DNA from: Eledone cirrhosa
Lineage: Eukaryota
Direction of reading: 5' to 3'
DNA length: 64,000 bases
Assembly: GCA_964016885.1 (NCBI GenBank)
Contig: OZ024758.1
Location: forward strand, 5,952,001-6,016,000
The position numbers and the translations under genes are program-made. Below the pieces are notes generated by a model that worked only from the letters and a program-made list of their open reading frames with translations, was not told the origin of the DNA and ran no database searches. This document shows, one piece after another, positions 32,501-64,000 of the stretch (its first letter is position 1; each line of letters begins with the position of its first letter).

Positions 32501-34133
32501 TAACCACTTTACAGTGTGGATTAGTTGCTTGTGACACCTACATAACCACTTTACAGTGTGGACTAGTTGCTTGTGACACCTACACAACCACTTTACAGTG
32601 TGGATTAGTTGCTTGTGACACCTACATAACCACTTTACAGTGTGGACTAGTTGCTTGTGACACCTACATAACCACTTTACAGTGTGGATTAGTTGCTTGT
32701 GACACCTACACAACCACTTTACAGTGTGGACTAGTTGCTTGTGACACCTACATAACCACTTTACAGTGTGGATTAGTTGCTTGTGACACCTACATAACCA
32801 CTTTACAGTGTGGATTAGTTGCTTGTGACACCTACACAACCACTTTACAGTGTGGACTAGTTGCTTGTGACACCTACATAACCACTTTACAGTGTGGACT
32901 AGTTGCTTGTGACACCTACATAACCACTTTACAGTGTGGACTAGTTGCTTGTGACACCTACACAACCACTTTACAGTGTGGACTAGTTGCTTGTGACACC
33001 TACACAACCACTTTACAGTGTGGATTAGTTGCTTGTGACACCTACACAACCACTTTACAGTGTGGACTAGTTGCTTGTGACACCTACACAACCACTTTAC
33101 AGTGTGGACTAGTTGCTTGTGACACCTACACAACCACTTTACAGTGTGGACTAGTTGCTTGTGACACCTACACAACCACTTTACAGTGTGGACTAGTTGC
33201 TTGTGACACCTACATAACCACTTTACAGTGTGGACTAGTTGCTTGTGACACCTACACAACCACTTTACAGTGTGGACTAGTTGCTTGTGACACCTACACA
33301 ACCACTTTACAGTGTGGACTAGTTGCTTGTGACACCTACACAACCACTTTACAGTAAGAACTGGGCACTAAATGAATTGAATTCATCAATCTCCACAACT
33401 ACTGCAATTCCACAAATCTGCAATAAGATTGTTTTGTTGATCTACTATATATATTTCTGAAATAGTTATATATCACTATCCTGCTCTATGACAACAGTGT
33501 TTGCTGCCCACCAAAGGTTTCAGGATCCTAGACGGAATATTTACATACGTCTAGTTCGCTCATGAGAAAGATGGGGGACATATATTAATATTGTCTAGGG
33601 TTCTGAAACCTTCGGTAATGGAGTAGTTATATATTGTGTTGTTCCCTTTCTAATTAAATAGCTCTGTTTTATACATAGAACACTCTTTTTTCCTTTGCTT
33701 TTCGGAAATCCTTAACATATCATCATCATCGTCATCAATTTACGCCCGCTTTTCCCTGCTTGCAAGGGTGGGACAGGAACTGATTCTGGCTTGATTTCTA
33801 CAACTGGATGCCCTTCCTAACACCAACCTCATTTACAGTGTGGTGAGCTGGGTGCTTTTTTGCCGTGGCACCTCCACGACCACTTTACAGTGGAATGATA
33901 GGGACTGGAGTTTACAGCTGAGTAAACTGGAGCAATGTGAAATAAAGTGTCTTGCTCAAGGAAACAACACATCTCCCGGTCCGAGGATTGAACTCACAAC
34001 CTTTCGATTGCAAGCCCAATGCTCTAACCACTAAGCCATGTGCCTATATATATAGTCATGTGTCTATATATATATCATCATCATCATTTTACGTCCGCTT
34101 TTCCCTGCTTGCAAGGGTGGGACGGGTCTTATT

Positions 34134-38406: not shown

Positions 38407-38817
38407 ATGGATAACATAGGAGAAGCGGAACAATTGGATATCACCCGATATGTCCCAGAGCACCAGTGGGTGAAAGATGTTTTCCAAGACGTAATTGGAA
38501 ATTCTGCCACAAAACAAAGCCTCGTCGGAGGTGTTACGGGCTGGTGTACAGGGATACTGATTTCAAAAGCTGGCAAAATAGCCGCAGCTACAATGGGAAC
38601 TACCATCTTACTATTACAAGTGGCCCACCATCAGGATTATGTGAAATTCAACTGGAATAAAATTGAAGACAGCTTTCAAAAGGCTGGTAAGTCTATTATG
38701 AAAGAAACCAAGAAAAATTGTCCCGGTTTTGTATCGAGCACTGAAGCACTTTTCAAAAATAATATTGTATTTGCATCGATGTTTGCTGGTGGTTTTCTAA
38801 TGGGCTTTTCGTTTTGA
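38407..38817 (+). CDS. FUNDC1: FUN14 domain-containing protein (FUNDC1/2-like), intronless, 136 aa
   Basis: MDNIGEAEQLDITRYVPEHQW...QSLVGGVTGWCTGILISKAGKIAA...LLLQVAHHQDYVKFNWNKIE...NNIVFASMFAGGFLMGFSF matches the FUN14 pattern (GGVTGWC.G, LLLQ.A.H..Y....W, F.GGFL.G). Likely true start is Met58 of the track ORF. FUNDC1 versus FUNDC2 orthology is not resolvable here. Confidence 0.9.
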   Translation: MDNIGEAEQLDITRYVPEHQWVKDVFQDVIGNSATKQSLVGGVTGWCTGILISKAGKIAAATMGTTILLLQVAHHQDYVKFNWNKIEDSFQKAGKSIMKETKKNCPGFVSSTEALFKNNIVFASMFAGGFLMGFSF

Positions 38818-45431: not shown

Positions 45432-46919
45432 TATTATGTTTCTTGAATTGTGACTTAGTTGATTCCACCAGCCCCATGTGTTGTACAAGTTCTGCAATAA
45501 AAACATTGATGTTATTAAATGCAAGACTTTCCTTTCAAAGTAGAGCTTAACAGATGTGGTTATTTTGATGTTATCAAGACAGTAATAATATAGAATGGAG
45601 ATTTTGTCACCAAGATGATCATTTATCAATTTGACATTATCACATGGCTAGGTCAACAGAGCACCTCTTTAGTGTTGCAGTCAGTAGATAAACATTAATT
45701 GAAACAACGTGACTAACATAAAGTCACTATTTAGAGACTTTTGAGTCGCACCTTCTTTAAACTCTAAGTCAGCTGTCACTTTTTATAGGGAATTTGAGTA
45801 ATTTTCTTAAGACACTAATTACCAAACCTACACCATCTGGATGATTTCTTCTCAATATTGATTAATATGTAAGCAATATGAAAGAAGATATATGGTTCCA
45901 ACCGCAACAAAGCTGGTGAAACCTAACCCAGATGAAATAATTGTTTCTGATTTAGGCACAAGGCCAACAATTTTTTGGGGAGGTGAAAGTACTTTGTTTT
46001 ATTAACCCTGTAAAGATGAAAGACATTAGTAGGATTTGAACTCAGAACGTAAATGGCTGTAACTCTATACTACAAAGGTTGGTGTCTGATGCTCTACTGA
46101 TACTACCAATCCACTACCCTCTCATCAGATGAAATAATCAGCTTTCTATTATTAGGCCTGCATGTTGTCTTCAAGATTTATAGTCCTGGAATTATTTTTG
46201 AATAAGGCTATAAATATATTTTTATATAGAATTCCTTAATTCATGTACTTTAAGTTATATGACATAATTTTTCTTAAATTTCTTTAATACTCAATCCATA
46301 ATTACTGAAAAGAACACTGAAGACATTCTATTGATAAATGTGGTAGCTGTATATTGACTGGCTGACTTTCCCTCCCCAAAATTGTTGGCCTTGTGCCTAA
46401 ATCAGAAACCATTATTAGAAACATACGAAGGGCGATAGATTGACAGAATCGGTAGAGTATCGAACATGCTGCACGGCATAGAGTTACCCCCCTTAGGTTC
46501 TGAGTTCAATTCCTGCCGAGGTTAGCTTTGCCATTCATCCTTACGGGGATGAATGGTAAAATAAAGTACCAGTAACACACTGGGGTTGAATTAATCGACT
46601 TTCTCCTTCCTTTTAAATTGCTGGCCTTGTGCCAAACGTAGAAACAATTATTTAGAACTCTTAAAATGCTATAAAATGAGTGGTTTAAATTTTCCGATTG
46701 ATTTTAAGTTGAAACTAAATAATAGTTATTAAATGTGAGGTGAATGATGTGATTCTGTAACACATGCTGAGAGATATCTATTGAATATATATATGTTAAA
46801 TTATGAGCGCTAAGAAAATTACAGGTTGTCACTTTAAAATGTATACAATTGTCTCTGAGCCAAGCCAGGTGGTCTGTTTCTAATGCATAGATGCATATTT
46901 ATCTTGAGCCACGGAAAGT

Positions 46920-46927
46920 TATTTAAA
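46920..46927 (+). promoter_or_regulatory. TATA-like element upstream of the micro-exon gene
   Basis: TATTTAAA 60 nt upstream of the ATG at 46980; weak evidence in AT-rich DNA. Confidence 0.25.
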
Positions 46928-46979
46928 GGACGAATATTATAGAAACCTGTAAGTATTTCTCTTCAGCATACCACAGAAG

Positions 46980-47010
46980 ATGAAGACAAGTATCTTAATT
47001 GTTGCTCTGG
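46980..47010 (+). CDS. Micro-exon gene exon 1: signal peptide N-part ([10 protein letters not shown])
   Basis: aagATGA start context, 31 nt, donor G|GTAAGC, phase 1. Confidence 0.78.
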
Positions 47011-47796
47011 GTAAGCAGTTTCCTCAATATCACCTTATGTTTTCTACCATTTCAGTCTTTTAAGCAATTAATTCACTTTCTGTAATTGTATCAGGTTATA
47101 TTTTAGTTGAAACCCATCAGGTTTCTGTATCTATATCACAATGTACCAGAAAACTGACATAATGCAGGAATTTTGTTTTAATTTAGAATAATTAATTAAA
47201 CGAAAGAATTTAATTTCTTGAACTCATTTAAAAAAGTTAGTAATTTAGTTGGTATTCTATGATGGTTCACTTCTTATTTAAATGTCAAAAATATCTGAGA
47301 TAGTTGTTAATATGATTATAATTTTCAGACTATAACCGTATATTTAGAGATTAGATATTTAATTGTAAAGGTTAAACACAGTTTCATCTCTAAAGATATA
47401 AGAAGTGTAAGCAATAATAATCTATACGTTGACTTGACTTTTGTTGTCCATAATTTTACATACTCTTATATACATTCGAAAAAATATGGAAAGTTTTAAT
47501 CAGTAGTGTAAGCAATAATAATTTATAGCAGAGATGGTCAACCGGGGTCACCAACCCCCTCACGGCCACGTAATACCCTCAACGCCCAGAGTGGGTAATA
47601 TGAAAAGATTCGGGACCCAGACGGCTGATCTCCGGCCGTTTCGACAGCTAGATCTGAGCTGTTTGGATCTAACTGTCAAAACGCCTGGAGCTCAGCCGTC
47701 GGGGTCCTGAATCTTTTCATATTACCCACTCTGCTACGCCAAGTATCGAGTACTCGGGTGGGTTATGGTCTAACTGGCTTTTACCACACCCTATCT

Positions 47797-47856
<60 letters not shown>

Positions 47857-50028
47857 ATGATAAAGAACGTGGATTCAGTGTTGCATCATATCACATTTAA
47901 TAACATATTACATATGTTTCTCTATCGATCAGCTCGAGGCAAGATCTATTACAGATCGAACATGACTCTGAAATCGAAAGTTCTTCAGTTAGTTTAGTAT
48001 GATATTATACTCTGCTCTAAAGACACTGTATTTCACGTTGCGCCAGTTTACTCAGCTGTAGAAATGAGTTGAGACGTCACCGGTGCCAAGGTGTATCGAC
48101 CATTGCCTTTCCCTGGGGCAGAGAGGGGAGACTCGTATGCAAGGGTGACTGCTGGTCTTCCACAAACAGCCTTTCCAGGACTTGTGCCTCGGAAGAGAAC
48201 TTTCTAGGTGCAAATCTTATGGTCATTCGTGACCGAAGGGGGTCTTCACTTTTTATATATATAAGGATAAGTAGTTTGCATCATTTCCACCGTTACTGCG
48301 TATATATCTAAAGAAATTAACCCTGAATTATGCGACCTATCTATGTAGAAAATGGTTCAATAGTGTCTCCCTACTCACCACCATAGGCGCTGAGCTGGTC
48401 AGCCGCAGGTGTGAGTCTTACGAGCTGGAGTGGCTTTTCCAGCGCGTCTCCCTTGCCGTCCTCCAGGCAAACGCCTTCTCCATTCTGTCCGCCGGGGCTG
48501 TGGGGAGGCCACCAATATGATTGACTGACTTGTCATTTTATCAGTGAGGACAGAAATTATTTCATTTAGTTTTAATGAAATATAAGTTTCACTGTGATCA
48601 CAGCTCCCTCAATTGTGTGAAAATTGCAAATACTATTTCAGGATCGCTAAATATAAACGTAATGAACTTTCAAATGAAATTAGCTACATCCTTAGAATAC
48701 TGTCCAAGATTCTGTTCGTGTAATATATTTATTCCATGGGTATTATAGCTTTGGAGGCGTGTGGCCTCGTGGTAAGGGTGTTTCACTTACGATCATATTG
48801 TCGTAGGTTTGATTCCTAGACTATGTTGTGGTTTGAGTAATACATTTCATTACAATGCTCAGCTGAAAATGAGTACCAGTAATAGCTGAGGGTTTAACAT
48901 TGCGATGGACTGGCGTCCTGTCCACGGATACCTGGATAAGCACCAGCCTAATGGGTCTCCGAGCTCGAGACAAGTTTTATACCATTTTCTTTTAAAGATA
49001 TAATTAGAATCTTTAAAAACTCTCCCCACCGAAGTTAACAAAGAACTTACTAGATCTACAAAACCAAATTATAATTTTTTCTAAAGATATAATTAAAATA
49101 ATGACTTCATGTTTGGAAAAGAAATTGTTTTTTATTGATAAATTTATTTTTCTATTTCAGCCTTCTTCGCCACTGTGAGGTCAATCTCAATAGGTAAATA
49201 TAACTATTCAAGATTAGTTAAACATGAACGTGTGGCATGAAGATCGCTTACGCCCCGAAAGATTCATAGTATATAGTTTATATCTTGGCACCAATGATGT
49301 GCTTTGTAGTTATTTTCTTGTAATTGTATAAATGAAAACAATATAAAGAGCAATATTTATATATAAAAATGATAAAAGGTTTTTATGAGTAATTTTCTTG
49401 ATACGAAAGAGGAAATGATGAAGGAGTGAAGAAATATGTATGAACTGTATATCTATATAATCAATCGAGGGTTTATGAGTTCACTCTTAGACCGGGAGAT
49501 GCGTTGAGTAAGACACTTTATTTCACGTTGCTCTAGTTTACTCAGCTGTAGAAATGAGTTGCAACGTCACTGCTGCCAAGCTGTATTGGCCATTGCTTTT
49601 TTCTTGGACATCATCGGTGGCGTGGAGAGGGGAGGCTGGTATGCATGAGTGAATGCTGGTCTTCCTCAAACAATCTTGCTCGGACTTGTACCCGGCCAGA
49701 ACCAAAAAGTTTAAAACTATTACCACCTCTGTTAGCCAACTATCAGAGAACGAAGGACAACTTCGGACAGAGATATGAACTCTCCTCTCTAAATATGTAT
49801 GTAAAAACTAATAATTTTTCTTCCCCATTTTATCATTATTCGTATAAATATGCAACTTAACTGCACTTCCGCCGTTGAAAAAGCATATAATGCTGAAACC
49901 GGTACCACTATTGAATGCGGAAATACCCACTTTATAAATAAATGTTTTGATATTATACTGAAAAAATCCCTCCAGCATTTTCTACTGAATTACTATTTGT
50001 TTATATATATCAACTCGTGTGTTACTTT

Positions 50029-50088
<60 letters not shown>

Positions 50089-51930
50089 AATGGAAGTTTA
50101 GTAAAATCGAATTTTCGGCTGTAGCCAAGCCAACGAGATACAATGAGGAATTGTGCAGCCAAGCACTCCATGAGGAATCTCAGAGTAATAACATTCGTTA
50201 GACGGCATGACAAATTGAAAACTGTGGCAGGCAAGCCCAGTCACGACACCGAAGCAACGAGAAAACCAACAGGTTAATAAAACAAACCTGGACCATCTTG
50301 GAGGCAGATCGTCGTTTCTCCGAAAGGTTTCTATGAATCCCTAATCAACAATCCTACTTGCGCAAGTATGCAAGTTTTTGGTGTTTGAAGACCGAACTGG
50401 GGATTCATGTTATCAACAGGTTTCCGTTCTGTGCCTTGAAGTAGTAAGCCAATATATATATATTACATCCTTCCAACACTGGATTGGTGAATATACAACT
50501 GGATATATACACACACCCATATATATTTGTTACAACATATAGACACTTACTTCGATTTACACAAATGTCTATTTACTCTAGCTTTGGAGAAAACACCCCC
50601 AAATGCAATAAAAGACGAAGAAATAAGTAAGTACACGATAATGATGTATGTATATATGTATTTATGTATGGATATGTATGTATGTATGTATGTATGTATG
50701 CATGTTTATGTATGTATGCATGCATACCTACATGCATGTATATATGTATGTTCATGTATGTATGCATCATGTATGTATGTATGTATGTATGTATGTATGT
50801 ATGTATGTATGTATGTATGTATGTATGTATGTATGTCTTTCTCTTAATTTCGAGTACATTTTTGACAGGCCACCTTCCTGGTGGCAAGGTTGTAAAAGAA
50901 AAGAAATTGTCATTCTTTGAATCGCAAGAATGTTTTGCAAATTTTGAAGGTGCCAGATAACGCAACCATCTGTAGTCTATGAATTAGGGAGCTGCGCTCT
51001 TTGTCCAAAAATCCAAGTTAACTTTAGCGTCTGAATGAGTATCTGTGTGTATGTGTGTATATATGTGTATATGTGTGTTTTGAATCCCTACCTCCTTGCG
51101 GACAACTGACAACTGATGCTGTACACCAGGTCCGAACACAGAAGAGCCGAACTCCAACCATCTCTCTTGCCCTCCCCATCTCTCACTATTATGAGAAAGT
51201 GGGACCCCTTGTGCTGGCCGCCCCACGCCCCCGGCAGACAGAATAGAGAAGGCGTTTCCCCGGAGGATGGTAAGGGAGATGCGGTGGAAGAGCCATTCCA
51301 TCTCGTTAGGCTCACACCTGCAGCTAGCTAGCTCAGCGCCTATGGCGATAAGTAGGGTGGTAGCCCTAGGGCCAAGGACACCAGAAGTCTTTACTGCTAG
51401 GTGCTCGATTGCAAACCTGTCGGAGAGCGACCGGTACTTGGAGAGTTCGCCCGCCTCAGCCGGAAGAGCAATGAACCTCTGTATCGGACAGAGAAGAGAA
51501 TAAATCGCTGTTTCCACCCCACCACACCTATACTTTTGAAATTTGGGATTGCTATAAAGACAATATAGATTTCCTTTGACTACAGAATACACCAGAAACA
51601 GACATGAATTGCTACTGTCCATCTATATATCTAAAACAGAGAATGTCTGTCTGTCTGTCTGTCTGTCTGTCTGACTTCCTAAAACTCGAGAACCACCCAA
51701 CCAATTGTTCTCAAACGTTACACATGTAATACTTATGGTCCTGTGAGTGTTTTGAGCAAAATATATTTCACATTTTCAATGCCCTAGGGACCGCATTAGG
51801 CGATTTAGCGATCTCTCTCTATAATTCTTAGTCTTTCTTTTTAGATAGATACATAGATATAACGTTGCGCCTTATAATATCTGTCTGCATTACGACATTA
51901 TGACGCTATATGTGTGTGTGTGTGTGTGTG

Positions 51931-51973
<43 letters not shown>

Positions 51974-52081
51974 TGTAACGTTTTTCGAAATATTTACTTC
52001 TACATTCACAAATGTTTTTAGTTTCAGAAGATCCCGTTAAGGGTGAAAGCAGCGATTCTTTGCTTACACTTTAATCTGTTA

Positions 52082-52128
<47 letters not shown>

Positions 52129-52690
52129 TAAAAAAACGAAAAATCAGTGATGCATCTGGACTCAGTTTACTGCGTGTTACAATTGTTTCGCCGGCAGGTA
52201 ACTCGAGACGTGATCTCAACGTGAGAAAATTTGCTCCGAAAGAATTGCATGTGTCCGAAGGAACTTGCAGCCGTAGAATCAGCTAGATCTATACAGTGAT
52301 CATGTCTCGAGCTACCTGCCGGCGAAACAATTGTAACACGCAATAAACTGAGTCCAGATGCATCACTGATTTTTCGTTTTTTTTAATACTATTCACACTC
52401 TGCTCTATAAGAATATTGAGTGCTAATTTTGGTATACCGCCTATGGAAGCACCATAGCTACCATTATACACACGTATATATATATATAGGAACGAGTAGG
52501 ACCCCCGATGACTGAGCTCAAGCCGTTTCGACGGCTAATTCTGGACTAAATTTAGTCCAGAATTAGCCGTCGAAACGGCTTGAGCTCAGCCGTCGGGGTC
52601 CTACTCGTTCCTATTACCCACTCTACTACCCTAAGTATTGAGTACTTTGGTGCATTATGGTCCATCGGGTTCCTTACCACATTTCCTTCG

Positions 52691-52729
<39 letters not shown>

Positions 52730-54110
52730 TATATTCGTGTACAGATATTTTTGCATACACAATAACAAAATATAAACAAACGTATTTATTTCACGAGGCT
52801 TGATAAGGATAAATATATATCAAATATATAAGAACCCTAGAGCAAATCCCCATCAACGCCGGGTCATTCTGCTAGTATTCACTAAAACATGACTCTCCCA
52901 ATGTTTGGAGCGACATTTTCCTAAAATTCGATGCCTAATCACGTGATATTCCCCAAAAAATCAAAATCCCTGCACACGAAGAATGAATATAAGCATAGAT
53001 ATAGATTCGCACACATATGTATTTGGTATTGAATATATTTCACATACTTCGATTTACACATATCTCTATTTACTAAAATATATATAATATTTCTTTTCAG
53101 TTTTCAAGAGAGCAACACCAAAACCAACGCCAACCACAAATGGAACAAGTAAGTACACAATAAGGATGTATGTGTATCACATTAGACAAATGGTCTCTGG
53201 TATAATCTTGAGGTTAACTTTAGCTTCTGAACGAAATATATACTAATAAATTTACTAAATCACACTACCGTAAGATGGTTTGTGGCAACTACCGTATTTC
53301 CCGACGTCGAAGACGCTACTTTTTTCCTAAAATAAGTCTCAAAAATTTAAAATGCATCCTGAAGGCCGAAGGTTGTTTATTATTTTTTTCAAGGCGGTGG
53401 ATTGGCAGTATCGGTAGAGGGTCGGACGCCATGCTTTCCAGCATAGTTACGTCCCTTTACGATTTGAGTTCAAATCCTGCCGAGGTTGACTTTGCCTTTC
53501 ATCCTTACGGGGTCGATAAAATAAAGTACCAGTAATGCACTGGGTAATTGCTGGCCTTGTGCCTAAAGTAGAAACAATTATTTTTTTCAATTTTTGGCTG
53601 TCAAAATTAGGATGCGTCCTCGAGGAATACGATATATCATTGCCACACACTAGTGGAATGAATTCAGGAAATAGAGAATGAATTCTGATAGAGATTTAAT
53701 AGTGTAGTGGTAATATTGAATCAATTATTTAGGATTATCAATATATATATATATATATACAATACATAAATAGAGAAAACCTTAAGCGATACTCCGACCA
53801 ATTCCATCTCACTCAACAAACATTAGGATATACTTAAGTATTATCCCAATTTAGTGTTTGGGGTGCTAACTAATCAGTATTTCGTGGATAGTTGGTTGTA
53901 TTATTTTATATGAGACATTATTAAATAAATATCTCTTTCCTTCCAGACGGCCATTTCGTTATAAGATTTCTACAATTTGGGATAAATAATTTCCAGGGTA
54001 TGTAGAAACTTGTATATAATCCGTAGCGGGCTCATAAACTCATCAGTGGATGCCCAAATTAATATCGATATAAGAATTATATCGACATTAATAGAATGGT
54101 GATGGCCTCC

Positions 54111-54179
<69 letters not shown>

Positions 54180-54648
54180 CATGTTTTTTACATGTTACAA
54201 TACAACACAATAGGAGGGAACATGATAATAGTATATATATATATTTATATCTGTATTTTTAAACGATGGTCAGTCAATGATAAACATTGATTGCCAAATA
54301 AATTAACTATGGAGATATAAAAGATACAGAAGCGAAAAAACCAACCAAACAGTGTGTTTTTTTTGCTTGTCATTTTTTTCTTGTGCTTTTTGCTTTTACT
54401 TTTACTTACACTTCCAACCAGTGCTGCCTGTAATTGTGTTATTTCAAGCGGAACATCTTTTTAACTCCTGAATCTCCACATGATGCCTTTGACACTAATA
54501 ACAACTATGTACCCTAAATGTTCTAAATGACTAGGATTCTTGTTACACGTTTTCGACATTCCTTATGCTCCGATGATTCCAGACTTCCCTCTGGAAGAAA
54601 CAATTGCCAGCTAATAAATGTTCTAAACTAAAATTTGATCGTTTTAAC

Positions 54649-54702
<54 letters not shown>

Positions 54703-55242
54703 CTATAGTATATATATCTATTTACTATATGTATATCTATTTACTATAATATATATATTTATTTACTATATGTATATATAACATTTTTTTTTCAGCTGCG
54801 GAGAAAATAATCTCAATATGGAGTGAAGGCAAACAAATATGTAAGTACACGATAATGATGTATATGTATGTATGTATGTATGTATATATATATATATATG
54901 TATATATATGTATATATATTCCCAGTGAAAAATAGTTTAATTAGGAATAAGTATAAATTAGTAATAAGTATTGGTTAGTATTCAGTTTTAGTTTTAAGTT
55001 TTTACCGGTTGCGCATTTCTAATGCTTTTCAAAAATAATTTTGAGATAGAGCGCTCGTGATGTTTGCTCTATCACGAGCGCTCTATCTCAAAATTATTTT
55101 TGAAAAGCATTAGAAATGCGCAACCGGTAAAAACTTAAAACTAAAACTGAATACTAACCAATACTTATTACTAATTTATACTTATTCCTAATTAAACTAT
55201 TTTTCACTGGGAAAAATTTGTCAGCATTTTCTTTTCCTTTTA

Positions 55243-55311
<69 letters not shown>

Positions 55312-55398
55312 GTGTGTGTGTAAATATATAAATTATCCTTCCCTCACAATATTGGTGATTATACGAATGAACATATACTCACACACATATATCTATTT

Positions 55399-55433
<35 letters not shown>

Positions 55434-57979
55434 CTATTTACTGTAATATATATATATTTACTGTAATATATAATATTTTTACTATATATATATCTATTTA
55501 CTATAATATATATCTATTTACTATAAGAAATATATATCTATTTACTATAAGAGATATATATCTATTTACTATAATATATATATCTATTTACTATAATATA
55601 TATATCTATTTACTATAATATATATATATTTACTATAATATATATTTACTATAATATATATATATATATTTACTATAATATATATATATCTATTTACTAT
55701 AATATATATATCTATTTACTATAATATATATATATCTATTTACTATAATATATATATATATATATTTACTATAATATATATAACTTATTTTTCCAGTAGT
55801 TTCGAACGAAACACTCAAAGATTTAATAAAAAACAAAGGTAAGTACACGAACATGATGTATGTATGTATGTATGTATGTATGTATGTATGTATGTATGTA
55901 TGTATGTATGTATGTATGTATGTATCTATCTATGTGTATGGTAAACGACTTGGAGTGGTTGATCAGTTTGTCTACCTGGGAAGCACTGTCAATCGATACA
56001 GCAAACTTGATAGTGAAATCTCACTTAGGATTAGGAAAGCAAGTGATGTTTTCGGAAAGCTAGAAAGGCGACTCTGGGGTCGGCGAGATATATGCAAGAA
56101 GACAAAGGTAAAGGTGTACAAGGCATGTGTGCCCTCTTCTCTTCTTTATGCCTGCGAGACCTGGGTCACATATCGACACCACCTTAAGCAATTGGAGCGT
56201 TTCCATCAGATGTATTTCAGACGGATCCATGGCGTTCACTGGAGGGACCACATCAGTGACATCGAGATTTTGGAGAGCTCTATGTGTGACAGTATAGAAA
56301 CTTTTGTGCTTAAGCAACGACTCCGTTGGAGTAGTCACCTTGCCAGGATGAAGGATTCTAGAATACCAAAACAACGCTTTTATGGAGAGTTAGTTAAAGC
56401 AAAACGACCGCCACATAAACCAAAAAAGAGGTATAAGGATTCCTTGAAAGCCTCTTTGAAAGATGCTAAGATCTTTGCTGAAACATGGGAAAATATTGCT
56501 GCTGATCGTAATAAATGGAGAAAGACTGTATATGAGGGAAAAAGTTGCCTTTGAGGCATCTCGTATCGCATACGAGAAAGTAAAGCGGGATGTGAGGAAG
56601 GTCATTGCTGTTGCACTTCCAGACGGAGAGGGTCCTCCTATAGTGCTGACATGCAGCGCCTGTGCGAGACTCTGCCTAAGCAAAACTGGACTCGAAAGTC
56701 ATCTTCGCAGTCATAAAGTAAGACCAATGGTTGACTACCAGGCTGCTGTTGGAGATGCTACTCATCATGCTTGCCAAGCATGTGGTAGAGAATGTAAATC
56801 AGCAGAAGGGCTCAAACGACATACAAAAAGTACATGAACTCCAACCACAGCCGGCTATTCCCAGTGAATGTTTTGGTTGCTGACTCTGTGCAAGACATTT
56901 TAGATCATTGGCTGGGCTAAAAATCCACATTCGATCGCAGCACAGGTTAGTTGTTATCGTGTGTGTGTGTGTGTATAGATATGTTTATGTGTGTGCGTGT
57001 GTGCGTATATATATATATATATATATGTATATTATTATTGTTGTTGTCGTTATTGTTATTGTTGTTATTATTATTATTATTGTTATTAATATATGTGTAT
57101 ATATATATATTTTTTTTTTTTCGTGCAATGGCCATACTCAATAACGAGGGGGCAGCCATCATGTATGTATGTATGTATGTATGTTCTTCTGGGAAACTTT
57201 GATAAAAAAACCTGCGGCTTCGGAAGCATCCGATGATGTTGACCAGTTCTCCTTTTCGGGAAGTGTTTTCGATGCTTAGAGAGTAGGATTGGTCGAGTGC
57301 AAGCCCTTTCGCCACTTGAAAATCCTTCAAAGCACAGGCATTGCTTGTTCAGGATATGTTACATGTTCGAATGGCTGGCCGTAGCCTAAATGTGCACCAT
57401 TTTCTGTAATATAACAAGCGATTGCAATACTCTTAGCAGAGATTTCAGCCATCATGTATGTATGTATATTATTTAGATATCACCTTTCCGCAGACGATTG
57501 GTGTATATAGGAATAGACATATATTCACACCCATATGTATTTGCTATTGTATATATACACACATACTTCGATTTACACATATCTCTATTTTCTATAATAT
57601 ATAAAATATTTCTTTCTAGATTCCAACAGACCAACGCGAAGCGAGAATAAAATACGTAAGTACACGACAAAGATGTATGTGTATCACCTTTGACAAATGG
57701 TCTCTGGTATAATTTTGAGGTTAACTTTAGCTTCTCATTGAAATATATAGTAATAGGTTTACTAAATCACACCACTATAAGATGGTTTATGCAACTATAT
57801 CATTGCCATACAATATCTGCTAAGTGGAATTTAGGAAACAAACTATTCTCATATAGATTTAGTAGAGTTGCGGTAATATCGAACAAATTATTTAAGGTTT
57901 TCAAAATATGTGGTGACATCTGGTGACTGATATTAGGGATTTACATGTATCCTCCGTTCTTGTACCCACACACGCACAC

Positions 57980-58038
<59 letters not shown>

Positions 58039-58149
58039 TTTATAACAATTAAGAGTCGGTATCCGATCGCATGATGGAACCCGAGCTGATCGATATAGAA
58101 ACACTTGTAATATGAAATAAGGTTTACAAAGGCTGCAATTCTTATTGTC

Positions 58150-58187
<38 letters not shown>

Positions 58188-61100
58188 TATTGTTGCTCTG
58201 AAATAGCGATATATACATGAATGTATGTATAGTATATTTGGCAATATACCGTATGTTTAATTAAAAACATTTAGAAGACCATTCACTATCAATTTTAAAG
58301 TAGTGATTATGTCACTTACTTATATTTTCGGCAAAGGTTGGGAGAGTAGCTGACAGCTGTTTTTCGTTGCTTGGCATTTATCAAAGCCACGCACTCACCT
58401 GCCTTTGCCGAAAATTATAGAAGCTGGATTCTTATTGAATTCCAGTAATAATCTGGAGTTGATTACACAGAGCGATTGCCGGTCCAGCAAAAATTAGGTA
58501 TTAGTATTGGTGCTCTGAAATAGCTAAACATACGGTATATTGCCAAATATGCTATACATACATCGCTAGTTCAGAGCACCACCACTAATACCTAATTCTT
58601 TTTGGGTAGTGTTTTCGATGCTCAGATATTGGGAGTAGTCGAGTGCAAGGCCTTTCGCCAATTGAAAAACCTTCAAAGCACAGCCATTGCTTGTTCAGGA
58701 TCTGTTACAGGTTCGTGTGCCTAGCTGTAGCCTAAAAGTTCAAGAAACTCTATAACCTGACAAGCGATTGCAATACTCTTAGCAAAGTTTTCAGCCATCA
58801 TGTAGATTATGATAGATATCAACTATCAGCAGACGATTGGTGTATATAGGAATACACATATATTCACACCCATATGTATTTGCTATTGTATATATACACA
58901 TACTTCCATTTACACATCTCTATTTACTAAAATATGGCATTTCTTTCCAGTCGTCAAGAGAGCAATGCCAGAAACAACACGTCCCTTAGATGCAGACGGT
59001 AAGTACACGACAATGATGTATGTGTATCAAATTAGACAAATGGTCTCTGGTATAATTTTGAGGTGGAATCTCCAGGGCATCTCCCTTACCATCCTCCGGG
59101 AAAAGTCTTCTCCATTTTGTTCGCCGGGGCTGTGGGGAGGCCAGCACGTGGGACCCCATTTACTCACCATACAGAGAGATGGGGAGGGCGAGAGAGATGT
59201 AGGCGATGACAGTGGGAGTTCGGCTCTTCTACGTTCGGACCATATCCTTGTGGTCGTTTTTATCATCTATTTAGAAAATTATTTGTCATTAACCGTCTCT
59301 CTGTCATCTTGAACTCTTTTGATTTCACTCGGAAGATTAACATCTTGAGGTTAACTATAGCTTCTGAATGAAATATATAGTAATAGGTTTACTAAATCAC
59401 ACCACTATAAGACGGTTTATGCATATGACAACAGAGAGGACTATTTCTCTCGATGTATTATCATGCGTAAGATTCTCTTCAGTGAGTCGAGGTTTACGCT
59501 ATGACAGGAGTGTGTGCAATTTTGAGTGTCGTGCTCAGTGAGTCGAGCTAAAAGAAACCGTGGGCTGATTATCATGTGTTTCATAGCTTTCGCCGTACCT
59601 CGACCAGTCGAAAAGTGTTCCCGCAGAGACCCAACTGAATCCAGAATATACCACAGACAAAAACATGTTGGTGTGTGACAAGGAAAATGATGTGTGTTTG
59701 ATGTAAAACGTTATTAATACAGTAAAACGAATAATAAAAAAAAAAATATATATATAAAAGACATTCATATATAATCTGTAAAAAAATAAAAATATATTTA
59801 TGTAATTGTTCTTATAAATGATTTGGTTATATATGGTTTACTTCACGTGAATCAATTAAAAAGTACATATAAAAACAGTTACCAAGAGTTCTTAAGGTTG
59901 ACAATGTTTTTGTTGTTGGTTTATGAGACTGTTGTAGTCTGTAGTAGTTGACTGTTGTTGATGTGAAAACAGCGAGCGACAGATAATTGTTGCTGTTGTT
60001 GGAATTTGGAGTCCGTGGTAGTAGTTGTGAGACCGTAGTTAGTAAGAGAAGGAGAGATATGGTTTGTATACCTCTGTTATGGTCTGTCGTAACTGTGAAG
60101 AACCGTGGCCTGCAGACAGCGGTGAATCTTACACATTTGTGTTCTGTAGTAGTAGGGCTCCAATCGCTCTGGGTGTATCTGTAGACCTCATGGGTCTGTT
60201 GATAGCAGTGAATCCTTACATAGTTAGTTGCTAGCGTAATGCTCCGATGTCTCTGGCTCTGTAAACCACTGGGGTCCGTTGATAGTGGTGAATCCTTACA
60301 TAGTTAGTTATAGGTGTAATGCTCCGATGTATCTGTGTAAAATAGCTTGATGCAGGCTCTATATATAGCTGTCACTTCCTGTCCCCCAACCTGAGGGGAT
60401 AGTTAACACACCAACCTGTCTACACCAAAAGGGTGTTGACCTAGAATTTGACCTTTAGGAGTCACCCAAGGTTCAAGGCGAGGACAGATTTCGCTACATA
60501 TATATATATGTATGTATGTATGTATGTATCTATGTATGTATGTATGTATGTATGTGTGTGTGTATATGTGTATGTATGTCTGTGTGATCTTGACCAGTTG
60601 TTTTGGGGTAGTGTTTTCGATGCTCAGAGATTGGGAGTAGTCGAGTGCAAGGCCTTTCTCCACTTGAAAAACCTTCAAAGCACAGGCATTGCTTGTTCAG
60701 GATCTGTTACAGGTTCGTGTGCCTAGCTGTAGCCTAAAAGTTCAAGAAACTCTATAACCTGACAAGCGATTGCAATACTCTTAGCAAAGTTTTCAGCCAT
60801 CATGTAGATTATGATAAATATCAACTATCAGCAGACGATTGGTGTATATAGGAATACACATATATTCACACCCATATGTATTTGCTATTGTATATATACA
60901 CATACTTCCATTTACACATATCTCTATTTACTAAAATATGGCATTTCTTTCCAGGTTTCGATGAATTAACGTCAAAACCATTGCCACCCTTGATTGAACA
61001 CGGTAAGTACACGACAATGATGTATGTGTATTACATTAGACAAATGGTCCCTGGTATAATTTTGAGGTGGAATGGCTCTTCCAGCGCATCTCCCTTACCA

Positions 61101-62472
61101 TCCTCCGGGAAAAAGTCTTCTCCATTTTGTCTGCAGGGGCTGAGGGGAGGCCAGTACGTGGGACCCCATTTGCTCACCATACAGAGAGATGGGGAGGGCG
61201 AGAGAGATGGAGGCGATGACAGTGGGAGTTCGGCTCTTCTACGTTCGGACCATATCCTTGTGGTCGTTTTTATCATCTATATAGAAAATTATTTGTCATT
61301 AACCGTCTCTCTGTCGTCTTGAAGTCTTTTGGTTTCACTTGGAAGATTAACATCTTGAGGTTAACTTTAGCTTCAGAATGAAATATATACTAATAGGTTT
61401 ACTAAATCACACCACTATAAGATGGTTTATGCAACTATATCATTGCCATACAATATATGCTAAGTGGAATTTCGGAAACAGACTATTCTCATACAGATTT
61501 AGTAGAGTTGCGGTAATATTGAACACATTATTTAAGGTTTTCAAAATATGTAGTGACATCATGTCAGCAGACGATTGGTGTATATAGGAATACACATATA
61601 TTCACACTCATATGTATTTGCTATTGTATATATACACATACTTCGACTTACACATATCTCTATTTACTAAAATATGGCATTTCTTTCCAGTTTTCAAGAG
61701 AGCAATGCCAAGCCTTGTGCCACGCTTAAATGATAAAGGTAAGTACACGACAATGTACTGACAGACACACACACACACATGTATATATTTGGGAAAAGTA
61801 AATAAAATAAAGAAAAATGTAACAATTTACTTAGAATGTCCCTGCTGCAGTTTCATTGAGTAAACATCAGGACTGAGTGCTGCGAATGCGTATGTATGTA
61901 TGTATGTATGTGCTACTGGTAGCATGTATCCCTGTACAACCTGACTCATGGTCGGGTCGCTGGCGACTAAACTGACAACCTCACCCAGGTTTCTTGGTGA
62001 CGAGGGTGACTTTGGACATCCTGCAGGACTAAAAACCTGTCAAAGGGCAAAGGAGCTCTTAAGAGTCAATGGCATTCCAAAATCAAGAGATGACCCCTTA
62101 GCCTTTGTCAAGGCAACTCTGATGGTATCCAATATTGTTGACTTGTTCTTTTTGGTAAATATCATCTTGGTGAAGAGAGTGGGACTGGCTTTGTGCAGTG
62201 CCTTTGCTCACTATAAAAGCTTCACAGTACAGGCATTGCTTTATATCTGGAGATCTCTCTGCACTTGTCGTCACATGGTACCATGGGCCCAGCACTATGT
62301 GTCAATAATTGTCACAGGTGTAGTGTTTGTACCAGAGTTTTCAAGTCGCTGGCTGGACTAAAAAGTCACATTCGTTCAGCGCATCGGTAGGGGTTCTCCT
62401 ACATGGATATAAAGTAGTGGCCGTACTCGAAAACGAGTTGGCAGCCACCATGTATGTATGTATGTATGTATG

Positions 62473-62521
<49 letters not shown>

Positions 62522-62948
62522 TGTTGACTAGTTGTTTGGGGGTAGTGTTTTCGATGCTCAGAGATTGGGAGTATTCGAGTGCAAGGCCTTTATCCACTTG
62601 AAAAACCTTCAAAGCACAGGCATTGCTTGTTCAGGATCTGTTACAGGTTCGTGGGCCTAGCTGTAGCCTAAAAGTTCAAGAAACTCTATAATCTGACAAG
62701 CGGTTGCAATACTATTAGCAATACTATTAGCAAAGTTTTCAGCCATGATGTAGATTATGATAGATATCAACTATCAGCAGACGATTGGTGTATATAGGAA
62801 TACACATATATTCACACTCATATGTATTTGCTATTGTATATATACACATACTTCGACTTACACATATCTCTATTTACTAAAATATGGCATTTCTTTCCAG
62901 TTGACAACAGAGCGGTGCCAAGCTCATTGGGAGGCTTAAATGATAAAG
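46980..62948 (+). CDS. Unrecognised secreted protein encoded by a tandem micro-exon array (11 exons seen, 3' end beyond window)
   Basis: All exons are GT-AG and phase 1. They join stop-free to [157 protein letters not shown] (157 codons + 1 nt). Confidence 0.85.
47588..47732. mobile_element. Fold-back/MITE element, same family as 52486-52614
   Basis: agagtgggtaatatgaaaagattc ... gaatcttttcatattacccactct imperfect inverted arms. Confidence 0.75.
48370..48510 (+). mobile_element. CRE-like fragment; further + copies at about 36060-36200, 59065-59250, 61068-61255
   Basis: [42 protein letters not shown], homologous to the 51130-51490 element but in the opposite orientation. Confidence 0.78.
49161..49193 (+). 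CDS. Micro-exon gene exon 2: signal peptide C-part ([11 protein letters not shown])
   Basis: tttttctatttcag acceptor, AG|GTAAAT donor, 33 nt, completes the hydrophobic core. Confidence 0.75.
50582..50626 (+). CDS. Micro-exon 3 ([15 protein letters not shown]), 45 nt
   Basis: Shared upstream flank (tacttcgatttacac...ctatttact), tag acceptor, GTAAGTACACG donor. Confidence 0.82.
51130..51490 (-). mobile_element. CRE-like non-LTR retrotransposon 3' end (restriction-like endonuclease C-terminus)
   Basis: [25 protein letters not shown]...[20 protein letters not shown] resembles the KY...AVET.G..G...QRISLAI.RGNA signature. Confidence 0.8.
52124..52391. mobile_element. MITE with about 90-bp terminal inverted repeats
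   Basis: tagtat...aaaacgaaaaatcagtgatgcatctggactcagttta mirrored at 52298-52391. Confidence 0.85.
52486..52614. mobile_element. Loopless palindrome, fold-back/MITE family
   Basis: Centre at 52550/52551 (ggactaaa|tttagtcc), about 64-bp arms; shares gagctcagccgtcggggtcct...tattacccactct with the 47588-47732 element. Confidence 0.8.
53101..53148 (+). CDS. Micro-exon 4 ([16 protein letters not shown]), 48 nt
   Basis: ttcttttcag acceptor, GTAAGTACAC donor, shared flanks. Confidence 0.87.
53292..53633. mobile_element. Mariner-like MITE interrupted by a tRNA-derived SINE (about 53392-53580)
   Basis: ccgtatttcccgacgtcgaagacgc ... gcgtcctcgaggaatacgat; inner SINE with B-box GAGTTCAAATCC. Confidence 0.6.
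53941..54050 (-). ncRNA. Type I hammerhead ribozyme motif with palindromic loopless stem III and long stem-loop II
   Basis: Minus strand TCCA-CTGATGA-gtttatgag...cttataac-GAAA-TGGCCG-TC-TGGA; GUC triplet; inner hairpin tttctaca/tgtagaaa in loop II. Confidence 0.7.
54796..54840 (+). CDS. Micro-exon 5 ([15 protein letters not shown]), 45 nt
   Basis: tttttttttcag acceptor, GTAAGTACACG donor. Confidence 0.83.
54919..55213. repeat. Perfect palindrome, 143-bp arms, 9-nt loop
   Basis: 54919-55061 is the reverse complement of 55071-55213; loop gtttgctct. Confidence 0.95.
55390..55782. repeat. AT-rich minisatellite (tatatatatctatttactataa)n
   Basis: Variable 18-26 bp units just upstream of micro-exon 6; a shorter version precedes micro-exon 5 (54695-54780). 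Confidence 0.9.
55797..55838 (+). CDS. Micro-exon 6 ([14 protein letters not shown]), 42 nt, NAGNAG acceptor
   Basis: tttttcCAGTAG acceptor, AG|GTAAGTACACG donor. Confidence 0.83.
55940..56945 (+). mobile_element. RTE-clade LINE 3' fragment (RT C-terminus plus C2H2 zinc fingers), frameshifted
   Basis: [12 protein letters not shown]...[17 protein letters not shown]...[20 protein letters not shown]...[19 protein letters not shown]; downstream [21 protein letters not shown]-type fingers. Confidence 0.92.
57620..57655 (+). CDS. Micro-exon 7 ([12 protein letters not shown]), 36 nt
   Basis: tttctttctag acceptor, GTAAGTACACG donor, shared flanks. Confidence 0.84.
58182..58600. mobile_element. Nested fold-back element
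   Basis: tattagtatt(g/t)gtgctctgaaatagc occurs twice directly and once inverted; tatttggcaatataccgtatgttta is mirrored; internal hairpin ttttcggcaaagg/cctttgccgaaaa. Confidence 0.65.
58951..58998 (+). CDS. Micro-exon 8 ([16 protein letters not shown]), 48 nt
   Basis: atttctttccag acceptor, G|GTAAGTACACG donor. Confidence 0.88.
59426..60498 (-). mobile_element. Possible solo LTR (about 1.07 kb)
   Basis: Minus strand begins TGTAGCG and ends TGTCA, TATA-like tatatatag near 60360; it interrupts the conserved intron unit; no clean TSD. Confidence 0.45.
60955..61002 (+). CDS. Micro-exon 9 ([16 protein letters not shown]), 48 nt
   Basis: Same acceptor and donor flanks as micro-exon 8. Confidence 0.88.
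61691..61738 (+). CDS. Micro-exon 10 ([16 protein letters not shown]), 48 nt
   Basis: atttctttccag acceptor, AG|GTAAGTACACG donor. Confidence 0.88.
61913..62450 (-). mobile_element. Interspersed element bounded by (TATG)n; copy at 63197-63785, inverted fragment at 42744-42880
   Basis: Near-identical copies, each delimited by (CATA)n/(TATG)n on both sides. Confidence 0.7.
62901..62948 (+). CDS. Micro-exon 11 ([16 protein letters not shown]), 48 nt
   Basis: 127 nt upstream flank identical to that of micro-exon 10; same donor. Confidence 0.88.
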
Positions 62949-63784
62949 GTAAGTACACGACAATGTACTGACAGACACACACACACACATATATATATTT
63001 GGGAAAATTAAATAAAATAAAGAAAAATGTAACAATTTACTTAGAATGTCCCTGCTGCAGTTTGATTGAGTAAACATCAGGGCTGAGTGCTGCGAATGCG
63101 TATGTATGTATGTATGTATGTATGTATGTATGTATGTATGTATGTATGTATGTATGTATGTATGTATGTATGTATGTATGTATGTATGTATGTATGTGCT
63201 ACTGGTAACATGTATCCCTGTACAACCTGACTCATGGTCGGGTCGCTGGCGACTAAACTGACAACCTTACCTAGGTTTCTTGGTGACGAGGGTGACTTTG
63301 GACATCCTGCAGGACTAAAAACAAAACCTGTCAAAGGGCAAAGGAGCTCTTAAGAGTCCATGGCAATCCAAAATCACCGGGAGAGATGACCCCTTAGCCT
63401 TTGTCAAGGCAGAATTCTAGGAAAAGGAAAACTCTGATATAACACCTGCAACTCTGATGGTATCCAATGATGTTGACTTGTTCTTTTTGGTAAATATCAT
63501 CTTGGTTAAGAGAGTGGGACTGGCTTTGTGCAGTGCCTTTGCTCACTATAAAAGCTTCACAGTACAGGCATTGCTTTATATCTGGATATCTCTCTGCACT
63601 TGTCGTCACATGGTACCATGGGCCCAGCACTATGTGTCAATAATTGTCACAGGTGTAGTGTTTGTACCAGAGTTTTCAAGTCGCTGGCTGGACTAAAAAG
63701 TCACATTCGTTCAGCGCATCGGTAGGGGTTCTCCTACATGGATATAAAGTAGTGGCCGTACTCGAAAACGAGTTGGCAGCCACC

Positions 63785-63816
<32 letters not shown>

Positions 63817-63823
63817 GTGTGTG

Positions 63824-63866
<43 letters not shown>

Positions 63867-64000
63867 GTTGTTGACTAGTTGTTTTTGGGTAGTGTTTTCG
63901 ATGCTCAGAGATTGGGAGTATTCGAGTGCAAGGCCTTTATCCACTTGAAAAACCTTCAAAGCACAGCCATTGCTTGTTCAGGATCTGTTACAGGTTCGTG

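Follow-up and report, generated by a model that had tools for sequence, protein, structure and literature searches.

A tandem array of diverging short exons in near-identical introns forms a candidate secreted-precursor gene in the octopod Eledone cirrhosa

What kind of gene places a run of short symmetric exons, each set in nearly the same intron, behind a predicted signal peptide, and does its diversity arise in RNA or in DNA? We assessed this question at one locus of Eledone cirrhosa (NCBI GenBank assembly GCA_964016885.1, contig OZ024758.1, positions 5,952,001 to 6,016,000 of the forward strand), a stretch of 64,000 nucleotides that we call the window. An earlier note on the window, made from its letters alone, had described nine such exons as a hidden secreted-protein gene resembling the micro-exon genes (MEGs) of schistosomes. 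We found a longer array of homologous cassette exons that differ far more from one another than do the introns around them, and that encode a predicted protein divided into Pro-rich, acidic and basic parts. Positions follow window numbering, which is continued beyond 64000, such that the contig position is the number plus 5,952,000.

Twenty homologous cassette exons share one open frame

The nine exons reported previously were recovered at the same places and with the same lengths (45, 48, 45, 42, 36, 48, 48, 48 and 48 nt), and the intron cassette that they were said to share was apparent from a donor 10-mer occurring nine times on the plus strand and never on the minus strand of the window, in all cases between 50627 and 62949. 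A search of the flanking sequence, as the earlier note had suggested, revealed eleven further cassettes in the 79 kb downstream of the window, giving 20 in total. Symmetry and freedom from stops extend to the whole enlarged set: every cassette is a multiple of three in length, falling into six classes (36, 39, 42, 45, 48 and 57 nt, n = 20), and all 20 are open in phase 1, while the other two frames contain stops in 15 and 13 of them. A GT donor follows each cassette (GTAAGT in 18 of 20) and an AG acceptor precedes 19. The exception is exon 20, whose acceptor reads CAC where CAG is expected; AG dinucleotides follow after 8 nt (out of frame) and after 15 nt (in frame). Unless the assembly is in error here, exon 20 is therefore probably skipped or shortened.

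We compared these exons with the background of a loose scan for AG..GT segments in 143 kb, which returned 33 candidates on the plus strand and 43 on the minus strand, 10 and 9 of which were open and a multiple of three. Given this background, a single open segment says little, whereas twenty homologous ones in a row are informative. One 51-nt phase-1 open AG..GT segment outside the cassettes (53947-53997) lay within the background rate and was not counted as an exon. Matches to a motif of the far upstream flank led to an exon in 12 of 13 cases, two of them over a 1-2 kb insertion, and the 13th was unrelated sequence. Among the thirteen 48-nt exons, the probability of no stop arising under neutral substitution was 0.001-0.006 when the observed numbers of substitutions on 12 spanning-tree edges were placed at random, the seven exons of other lengths being left out of the simulation. 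At least five length changes have occurred among the cassettes, every one a multiple of three.

The further claim that no exon junction creates a stop held for exons 1-22 (0 of 231 pairs) and broke down once exon 23 was included, with 5 of 253 pairs giving TAG. These are the joins of exons 5, 17, 18, 20 or 21 to exon 23, and they arise because exon 23 begins with AG and those five exons end in T. Stop-free joins are in any case weak evidence, since the first two bases of every cassette, as handed down by the ancestral exon, are never AA, AG or GA, and cassette symmetry is a by-product of one phase 1-1 exon having been copied along with its introns. A search of sequencing runs with positions 46900-56000 listed no RNA run and returned three runs of one sample with less than half of the words, a result with no bearing on expression.

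Exon divergence greatly exceeds that of the flanking introns

The duplicated unit comprises an exon and its flanking intron. Exons 13-15 are a recent copy of exons 10-12 (~2.5 kb, 94%), and units 8 and 9 have flanks in common on both sides; the intron upstream of exon 9 is identical to that of exon 8 at 145 of 146 positions, compared with 25 of 48 for the exons themselves. Across the six young 48-nt cassettes (exons 8, 9, 10, 11, 14 and 16, with exon 13 left out as identical to exon 10, and exons 12 and 15 for their length), 37 of 48 exon columns were variable compared with 4 of 93 flank columns (4 of 78 upstream, 0 of 15 downstream), and the mean pairwise difference was 0.36 in exons and 0.025 in flanks. 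Single pairs also differed in this way, with 5 of 48 nt between exons 11 and 14 against 5 of 700 in their flanks (p = 2 × 10−4), and 9 of 48 nt between exons 13 and 14 against 19 of 650 (p = 4 × 10−5). The contrast is not universal: exons 10 and 13 are identical, and exons 12 and 15 differ at 2 of 57 nt, which is about the level of their flanks.

On the spanning tree, pN/pS was 1.33 (126 changes in 427.5 nonsynonymous sites and 25 in 112.5 synonymous sites), a value that neutral simulations under three mutation models reached 17, 2 and 3 times per 1000 runs, and substitutions were spread nearly evenly over codon positions (56, 49 and 46). The weak correlation between exon and flank distances (Mantel ρ = 0.27, 123 of 2000 permutations, with a gapped alignment that undercounts some exon differences) suggests, but does not establish, a mosaic history of the cassettes. 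The simplest reading of the variable columns is that recombination homogenised the introns after the exons had diverged, and that selection maintains the exon differences.

Some introns also carry, upstream of the acceptor, a branch-point-like unit that has grown into a 20-22-nt minisatellite, with 18, 54, 181 and 34 motif copies before exons 6, 18, 19 and 22, respectively. Such expanded units could affect the choice of branch point.

The predicted protein is ordered by charge

The full model has 1296 nt of coding sequence without internal stops, of which cassettes account for 945 nt (73%), and would yield a protein of 431 residues and ~47 kDa. The hydropathy pattern makes the proposed signal peptide plausible: the two contributing exons (46980-47010 and 49161-49193) are both in phase 1 and join into a basic, then hydrophobic, then small-residue N-terminus; hydropathy peaks at 2.83 at residues 5-15 and is at most 1.17 everywhere past residue 25. 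A Pro-rich, mildly basic part comes next (residues 23-244, net +11), in which five cassettes have KR at an identical position and two others have RR or KR. It is followed by an acidic part formed by cassettes 17-22 (residues 245-337, net -25) and, 25 residues later, by a basic part with a dibasic site at its start (residues 363-402, net +23). Cutting after KR and RR as far as the beginning of the basic part would produce nine pieces of 3-57 residues, then one of 108 residues (net -24) and finally one of 67 residues (net +22).

Unfolded scores were obtained in 314 of 381 windows of the protein, which contains 2 Cys, 9% Pro and 14% Ser plus Thr, together with two N-glycosylation sequons within exons and seven S-x-E/D motifs. 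The tail was modelled as one helix in a single-sequence prediction (mean pLDDT 80.7). Because the charge blocks are ordered, the acidic one immediately preceding a basic one of the same size, the exons appear to be used together rather than as alternates.

Gene model

All parts of the gene lie on the plus strand. A TATA-like element, whose function we infer from its sequence and place, occupies 46920-46926, 60 nt 5' of the ATG, and an AG acceptor directly 5' of that ATG makes an additional exon in the 5' untranslated region (UTR) possible. Exon 1 (46980-47010, 31 nt, phase 1) encodes the first half of the predicted signal peptide and is single copy in the genome, and exon 2 (49161-49193, 33 nt, phase 1-1) encodes its end and has no homology to the cassettes. 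The cassettes within the window are exon 3 (50582-50626, 45 nt), exon 4 (53101-53148, 48 nt, Thr/Pro-rich with a KR site), exon 5 (54796-54840, 45 nt), exon 6 (55797-55838, 42 nt, with the minisatellite of branch-point-like units on its 5' side and a LINE-like fragment on its 3' side), exon 7 (57620-57655, 36 nt), exon 8 (58951-58998, 48 nt, KR site), exon 9 (60955-61002, 48 nt), exon 10 (61691-61738, 48 nt, KR site, the exon repeated as exon 13) and exon 11 (62901-62948, 48 nt).

The upstream flank of exon 12 fills 63866-64000, and the gene continues past the window end. Exons 12-16 start at 64236 (57 nt), 65435 (48 nt), 66771 (48 nt), 68120 (57 nt) and 68543 (48 nt), and the acidic cassettes, exons 17-22, at 71034 (48 nt), 73274 (39 nt), 77408 (48 nt), 80114 (48 nt, the exon with the CAC acceptor), 81090 (48 nt) and 84013 (48 nt). 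Terminal coding exon 23 (87336-87643, phase 1) has 94 codons with a net charge of +23, a stop at 87620-87622 and a GT donor 21 nt past the stop. A stop this close to the last donor escapes nonsense-mediated decay, and the arrangement is consistent with such escape. Judged by its motifs, a probable 3' UTR exon begins at 89109, with AATAAA at 89283, so that exon 23 and this exon lie 23-25 kb past the window end.

The gene is single copy

A 221-nt cassette query had 16 matches in the 3.0-Gb assembly, 15 of them in one 30-kb cluster at the locus; the other, a weak match on a different contig, proved to hold no cassette. In a wider search, no match outside the locus contig extended into an exon among the 40 of 77 candidates scored, and the cassette is confined to one locus. 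The donor pattern matched 44 times genome-wide compared with 47 times for its reversed control, and 16 of the 44 fell in the array cluster; as matches do not exceed the control, there is no second array with such a donor. No paralogue of exon 1 or exon 23 was present in the assembly (one 36-nt match to the basic-repeat part, on another contig, was disregarded), and the gene is thus single copy there and not a member of a family.

Protein searches were made with the 94 residues of exon 23, as cassettes are singly too short for searching, and relatives sharing just the cassettes or the signal peptide would escape them. They returned no hits among 188 and 15 candidates, none among 1.84 billion representatives, no Pfam family and no usable ESM Atlas hit. 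The word-index protein database includes octopod proteins, yet exon 23 had no match there. We rejected a CRISPR-like or small-RNA array, given that the variable parts are homologous open exons and that Rfam gave 0 matches in 94 kb. No cephalopod gene of this kind was found described in the literature searched, which covered few subscription journals, and the gene is apparently undescribed.

Neighbouring features

The gene is adjoined by a single-exon FUNDC1 gene (FUN14 family, 38407-38817, plus strand), 91% identical to an Octopus bimaculoides protein and 82% to one of Argonauta hians, as fits an octopod. Exons on the minus strand at ~24184-28650 have Pfam RPN7 matches and presumably belong to COP9 signalosome subunit 1, and two EF-hand, calmodulin-like exons were recognised by eye downstream of the gene (contig ~6062650-6064420, plus strand). 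A 42-nt minisatellite at 31961-33367 can be read in both orientations as a long Cys-rich open frame (468 and 450 codons) and is probably non-coding. Within the introns, an open frame at ~55930-56550, just behind the exon 6 donor, had no Pfam hit; we take it to resemble the C-terminal part of a LINE reverse transcriptase. Long inverted repeats that look like hairpin insertions were seen by eye at ~55001-55215, 52140-52390 and 58230-58600, and the last intron holds a 65-nt minisatellite of ~nine copies with 97% identity (contig 6040063-6040637).

Discussion

We favour, at a probability of roughly 0.5, a reading in which the gene encodes a convertase-processed secreted precursor, with an acidic piece masking a cationic peptide and with diversity generated in DNA by cassette duplication. 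The gene would have grown by repeated tandem copying, most likely through unequal crossing-over, of ~130 nt of conserved upstream intron together with a 48-nt phase 1-1 exon and its donor. Recombination would hold the introns near-identical while selection holds the exons apart, and cassette gain, loss and divergence would supply the diversity. The product would be a largely disordered precursor of ~431 residues, from which convertases of the secretory pathway would cut short Pro-rich peptides (cassettes 4-17) at KR and RR, and would free a cationic, helical C-terminal peptide of 67 residues from the 108-residue acidic piece. Anionic regions mask cationic peptides in many precursors, and here the acidic piece may neutralise the cationic peptide until its release. 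Such a product would most likely act at a surface under conflict, in an antimicrobial, venom or reproductive secretion.

Several observations weigh against this interpretation, beginning with the fact that gene and product are predictions from genomic sequence. Dibasic sites occur in just 8 of 20 cassettes, the pieces cross exon borders and are uneven in size (3-57 residues), and 0 of 9 small pieces end in a Gly-dibasic amidation signal. The cut that opens the basic block, at its first dibasic pair, was chosen by hand, not predicted, and exon 23, with 12 dibasic pairs, could itself be cleaved by convertases. The hydrophobic moment of the tail is modest, at most 0.38 in the windows printed, and a helix modelled from a single sequence (pTM 0.41) carries little weight. 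By Fisher test the surplus of amino-acid changes was not significant (p = 0.16), and an ungapped alignment of 15-codon exons can miscount changes. In addition, differences at four-fold sites (5 of 26) clearly exceed those in the introns, so that part of the exon-intron contrast reflects homogenisation of introns and not fast evolution of exons.

If the precursor were processed little or not at all, it could instead act as a disordered polyampholyte in a structural secretion such as glue, coacervate, egg-stalk, spermatophore or mucus, with acidic and basic blocks pairing between chains and cassette number setting length. This is the likeliest of the alternatives, though we consider it improbable overall. 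The prevalence of unfolded windows, the low Cys content, the Pro, Ser and Thr content, the sequons and the S-x-E/D motifs would all suit it, as would the equal size of the opposite charge blocks and a genomic architecture like that of the schistosome SmPoMuc genes. Structural repeat proteins usually homogenise their exons, whereas exons here average 5.3 of 15 identical residues, and the KR position is kept in five cassettes while the remainder diverges. That the array is dead or was never expressed, a pseudogene or transposon-derived repeat with an inherited exon look, is very unlikely. The missing homologue of exon 23, the damaged acceptor of exon 20 and the even spread of substitutions over codon positions would fit such decay, but 20 exons have stayed free of stops and frameshifts through their length changes, the start, signal, stop and polyadenylation context are intact, and the cassette is not dispersed. 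Nor would neutral DNA be expected to diverge ten-fold faster than its flanks.

The earlier note placed the diversity in RNA, with combinatorial cassette skipping producing many isoforms whose variety is itself the function. We regard this as doubtful, somewhat more so than the structural alternative, although it could coexist with the precursor reading. Every cassette is symmetric, joins among exons 1-22 are free of stops, and cassettes make up most of the coding sequence and precede a long terminal exon, a layout close to that of MEGs 26-32. The acceptor of exon 20 makes skipping or shortening probable for one cassette at the least, and some introns hold as many as 181 copies of the branch-point-like unit. 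Against it stand donors that are near-consensus and uniform rather than weak, the stops formed when five exons join directly to exon 23, exons longer than typical MEG micro-exons, and the inheritance of symmetry and stop-free joins from a single ancestral exon. A combination of the two levels, in which cassettes are skipped in RNA and recombine among homogenised introns in DNA to form a peptide repertoire, is likewise unlikely, ranking between the structural and the skipping alternatives. Since cut sites lie near cassette starts, each skipping pattern would then create new chimeric peptides and alter the balance of acid and base by which the tail is masked; a transcript without exon 22 would lose the tail altogether. 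Mutually exclusive use of one cassette per transcript, as in Dscam and chosen via the conserved intron flank, is the least probable of all. Conserved intron sequence does precede every diverged exon, and Dscam-type clusters rely on docking and selector complementarity; no docking-like complement was found in introns 1, 2, 22 and 23, where 24 tests of three of the 20 cassettes, limited to perfect duplexes, gave no duplex longer than 11 nt and none that exceeded the null maximum. Moreover, of the 20 transcripts possible with one cassette each, 5 would meet a stop where exon 23 is joined, and the cassettes are ordered by charge.

Comparison with described systems places the gene nearer to SmPoMuc and to honey bee apidaecin than to MEGs. 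The closest match in genomic architecture is SmPoMuc of Schistosoma mansoni, in which a short exon with flanking introns is repeated in tandem up to 20 times in a unit of ~1 kb, with microsatellites in the introns, and in which introns are homogenised (>93%) and exons stay different, a pattern for which the authors invoke conversion plus selection (PMC2576457). Both systems duplicate an exon in tandem with its introns and have introns more alike than exons; the comparison is one of architecture, and no sequence similarity is expected. SmPoMuc is a multigene family whose 27-nt exon comes in two or three variants and whose repeat number varies between individuals. The octopod array belongs to a single gene, with 19 distinct exon sequences that measure 36-57 nt and a product that has dibasic sites, an acidic block and a basic tail. 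In apidaecin, a conserved N-terminus precedes Pro-rich units encoded by duplicated exons, which vary in number and sequence between haplotypes, with splice variation also proposed (PMC1847501). It thus shares exon-duplicated Pro-rich units behind an N-terminus and diversity that arises in DNA, but each apidaecin exon is a complete 28-residue peptide, which the octopod exons are not, given their scattered cut sites and pieces that span exons, and the octopod gene adds a separate acidic piece and a cationic tail. In the myticalins of mussels, secreted precursors have cationic and anionic regions split by KR and a hypervariable peptide region (PMC5577615). The octopod protein has the same division at a dibasic site (net -24 and +22 around RR), in reversed order, anionic first and cationic last; myticalins form a three-exon multigene family that begins with the cationic peptide, ends with the anionic extension and has no exon array.

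The secreted-protein part of the original proposal is supported by the phase-1 cassettes and the predicted signal peptide, while a MEG-like variable secretome is so far unsupported, in view of exon size, protein mass and charge order. MEG micro-exons are under 36 bp and the proteins average ~10 kDa (PMC4671649). A wider range of 6-81 bp, with 15 bp the usual size, is given in PMC10526429, and flatworms are the sole group from which MEGs are reported (PMC4350168). Shared traits include a signal peptide, which two short exons encode here and which was recognised by hydropathy and n/h/c pattern, long introns between short symmetric exons that make up most of the coding sequence, a long terminal exon, a disordered product and signs of accelerated evolution. 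In size, only 1 of 20 cassettes is as short as 36 nt and none is shorter, such that they fall inside the 6-81 bp range only; MEG isoforms are documented, whereas those of this gene, built from 36-57 nt homologous duplicates, are hypothetical. It lies beside an octopod gene and its exon 23 has no hits. It is not a MEG member, and the acidic cassettes, basic tail and exon-intron contrast, which lay beyond the view of the earlier note, make SmPoMuc and multi-peptide precursors the nearest analogues.

Annotation easily misses a gene of this kind, in which 22 coding exons are shorter than 60 nt. It can be described as a variant of the exon-plus-intron tandem array that stands out by divergent exons in homogenised introns and by a balanced acid-base layout, and its near-identical introns and divergent exons make it a compact test case of conversion against selection. 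The exon-intron contrast also points to a product under selection for sequence diversity, as is typical of immune, venom or reproductive proteins. Were diversification to operate at both the RNA and the DNA level, an octopod would have arrived on its own at a flatworm-style variable secretome, one tied to the processing of a pro-peptide and overlooked by standard annotation. If isoform diversity is real, MEG-like variation would extend beyond flatworms, and without it the gene would still be an undescribed candidate precursor of a cationic peptide.

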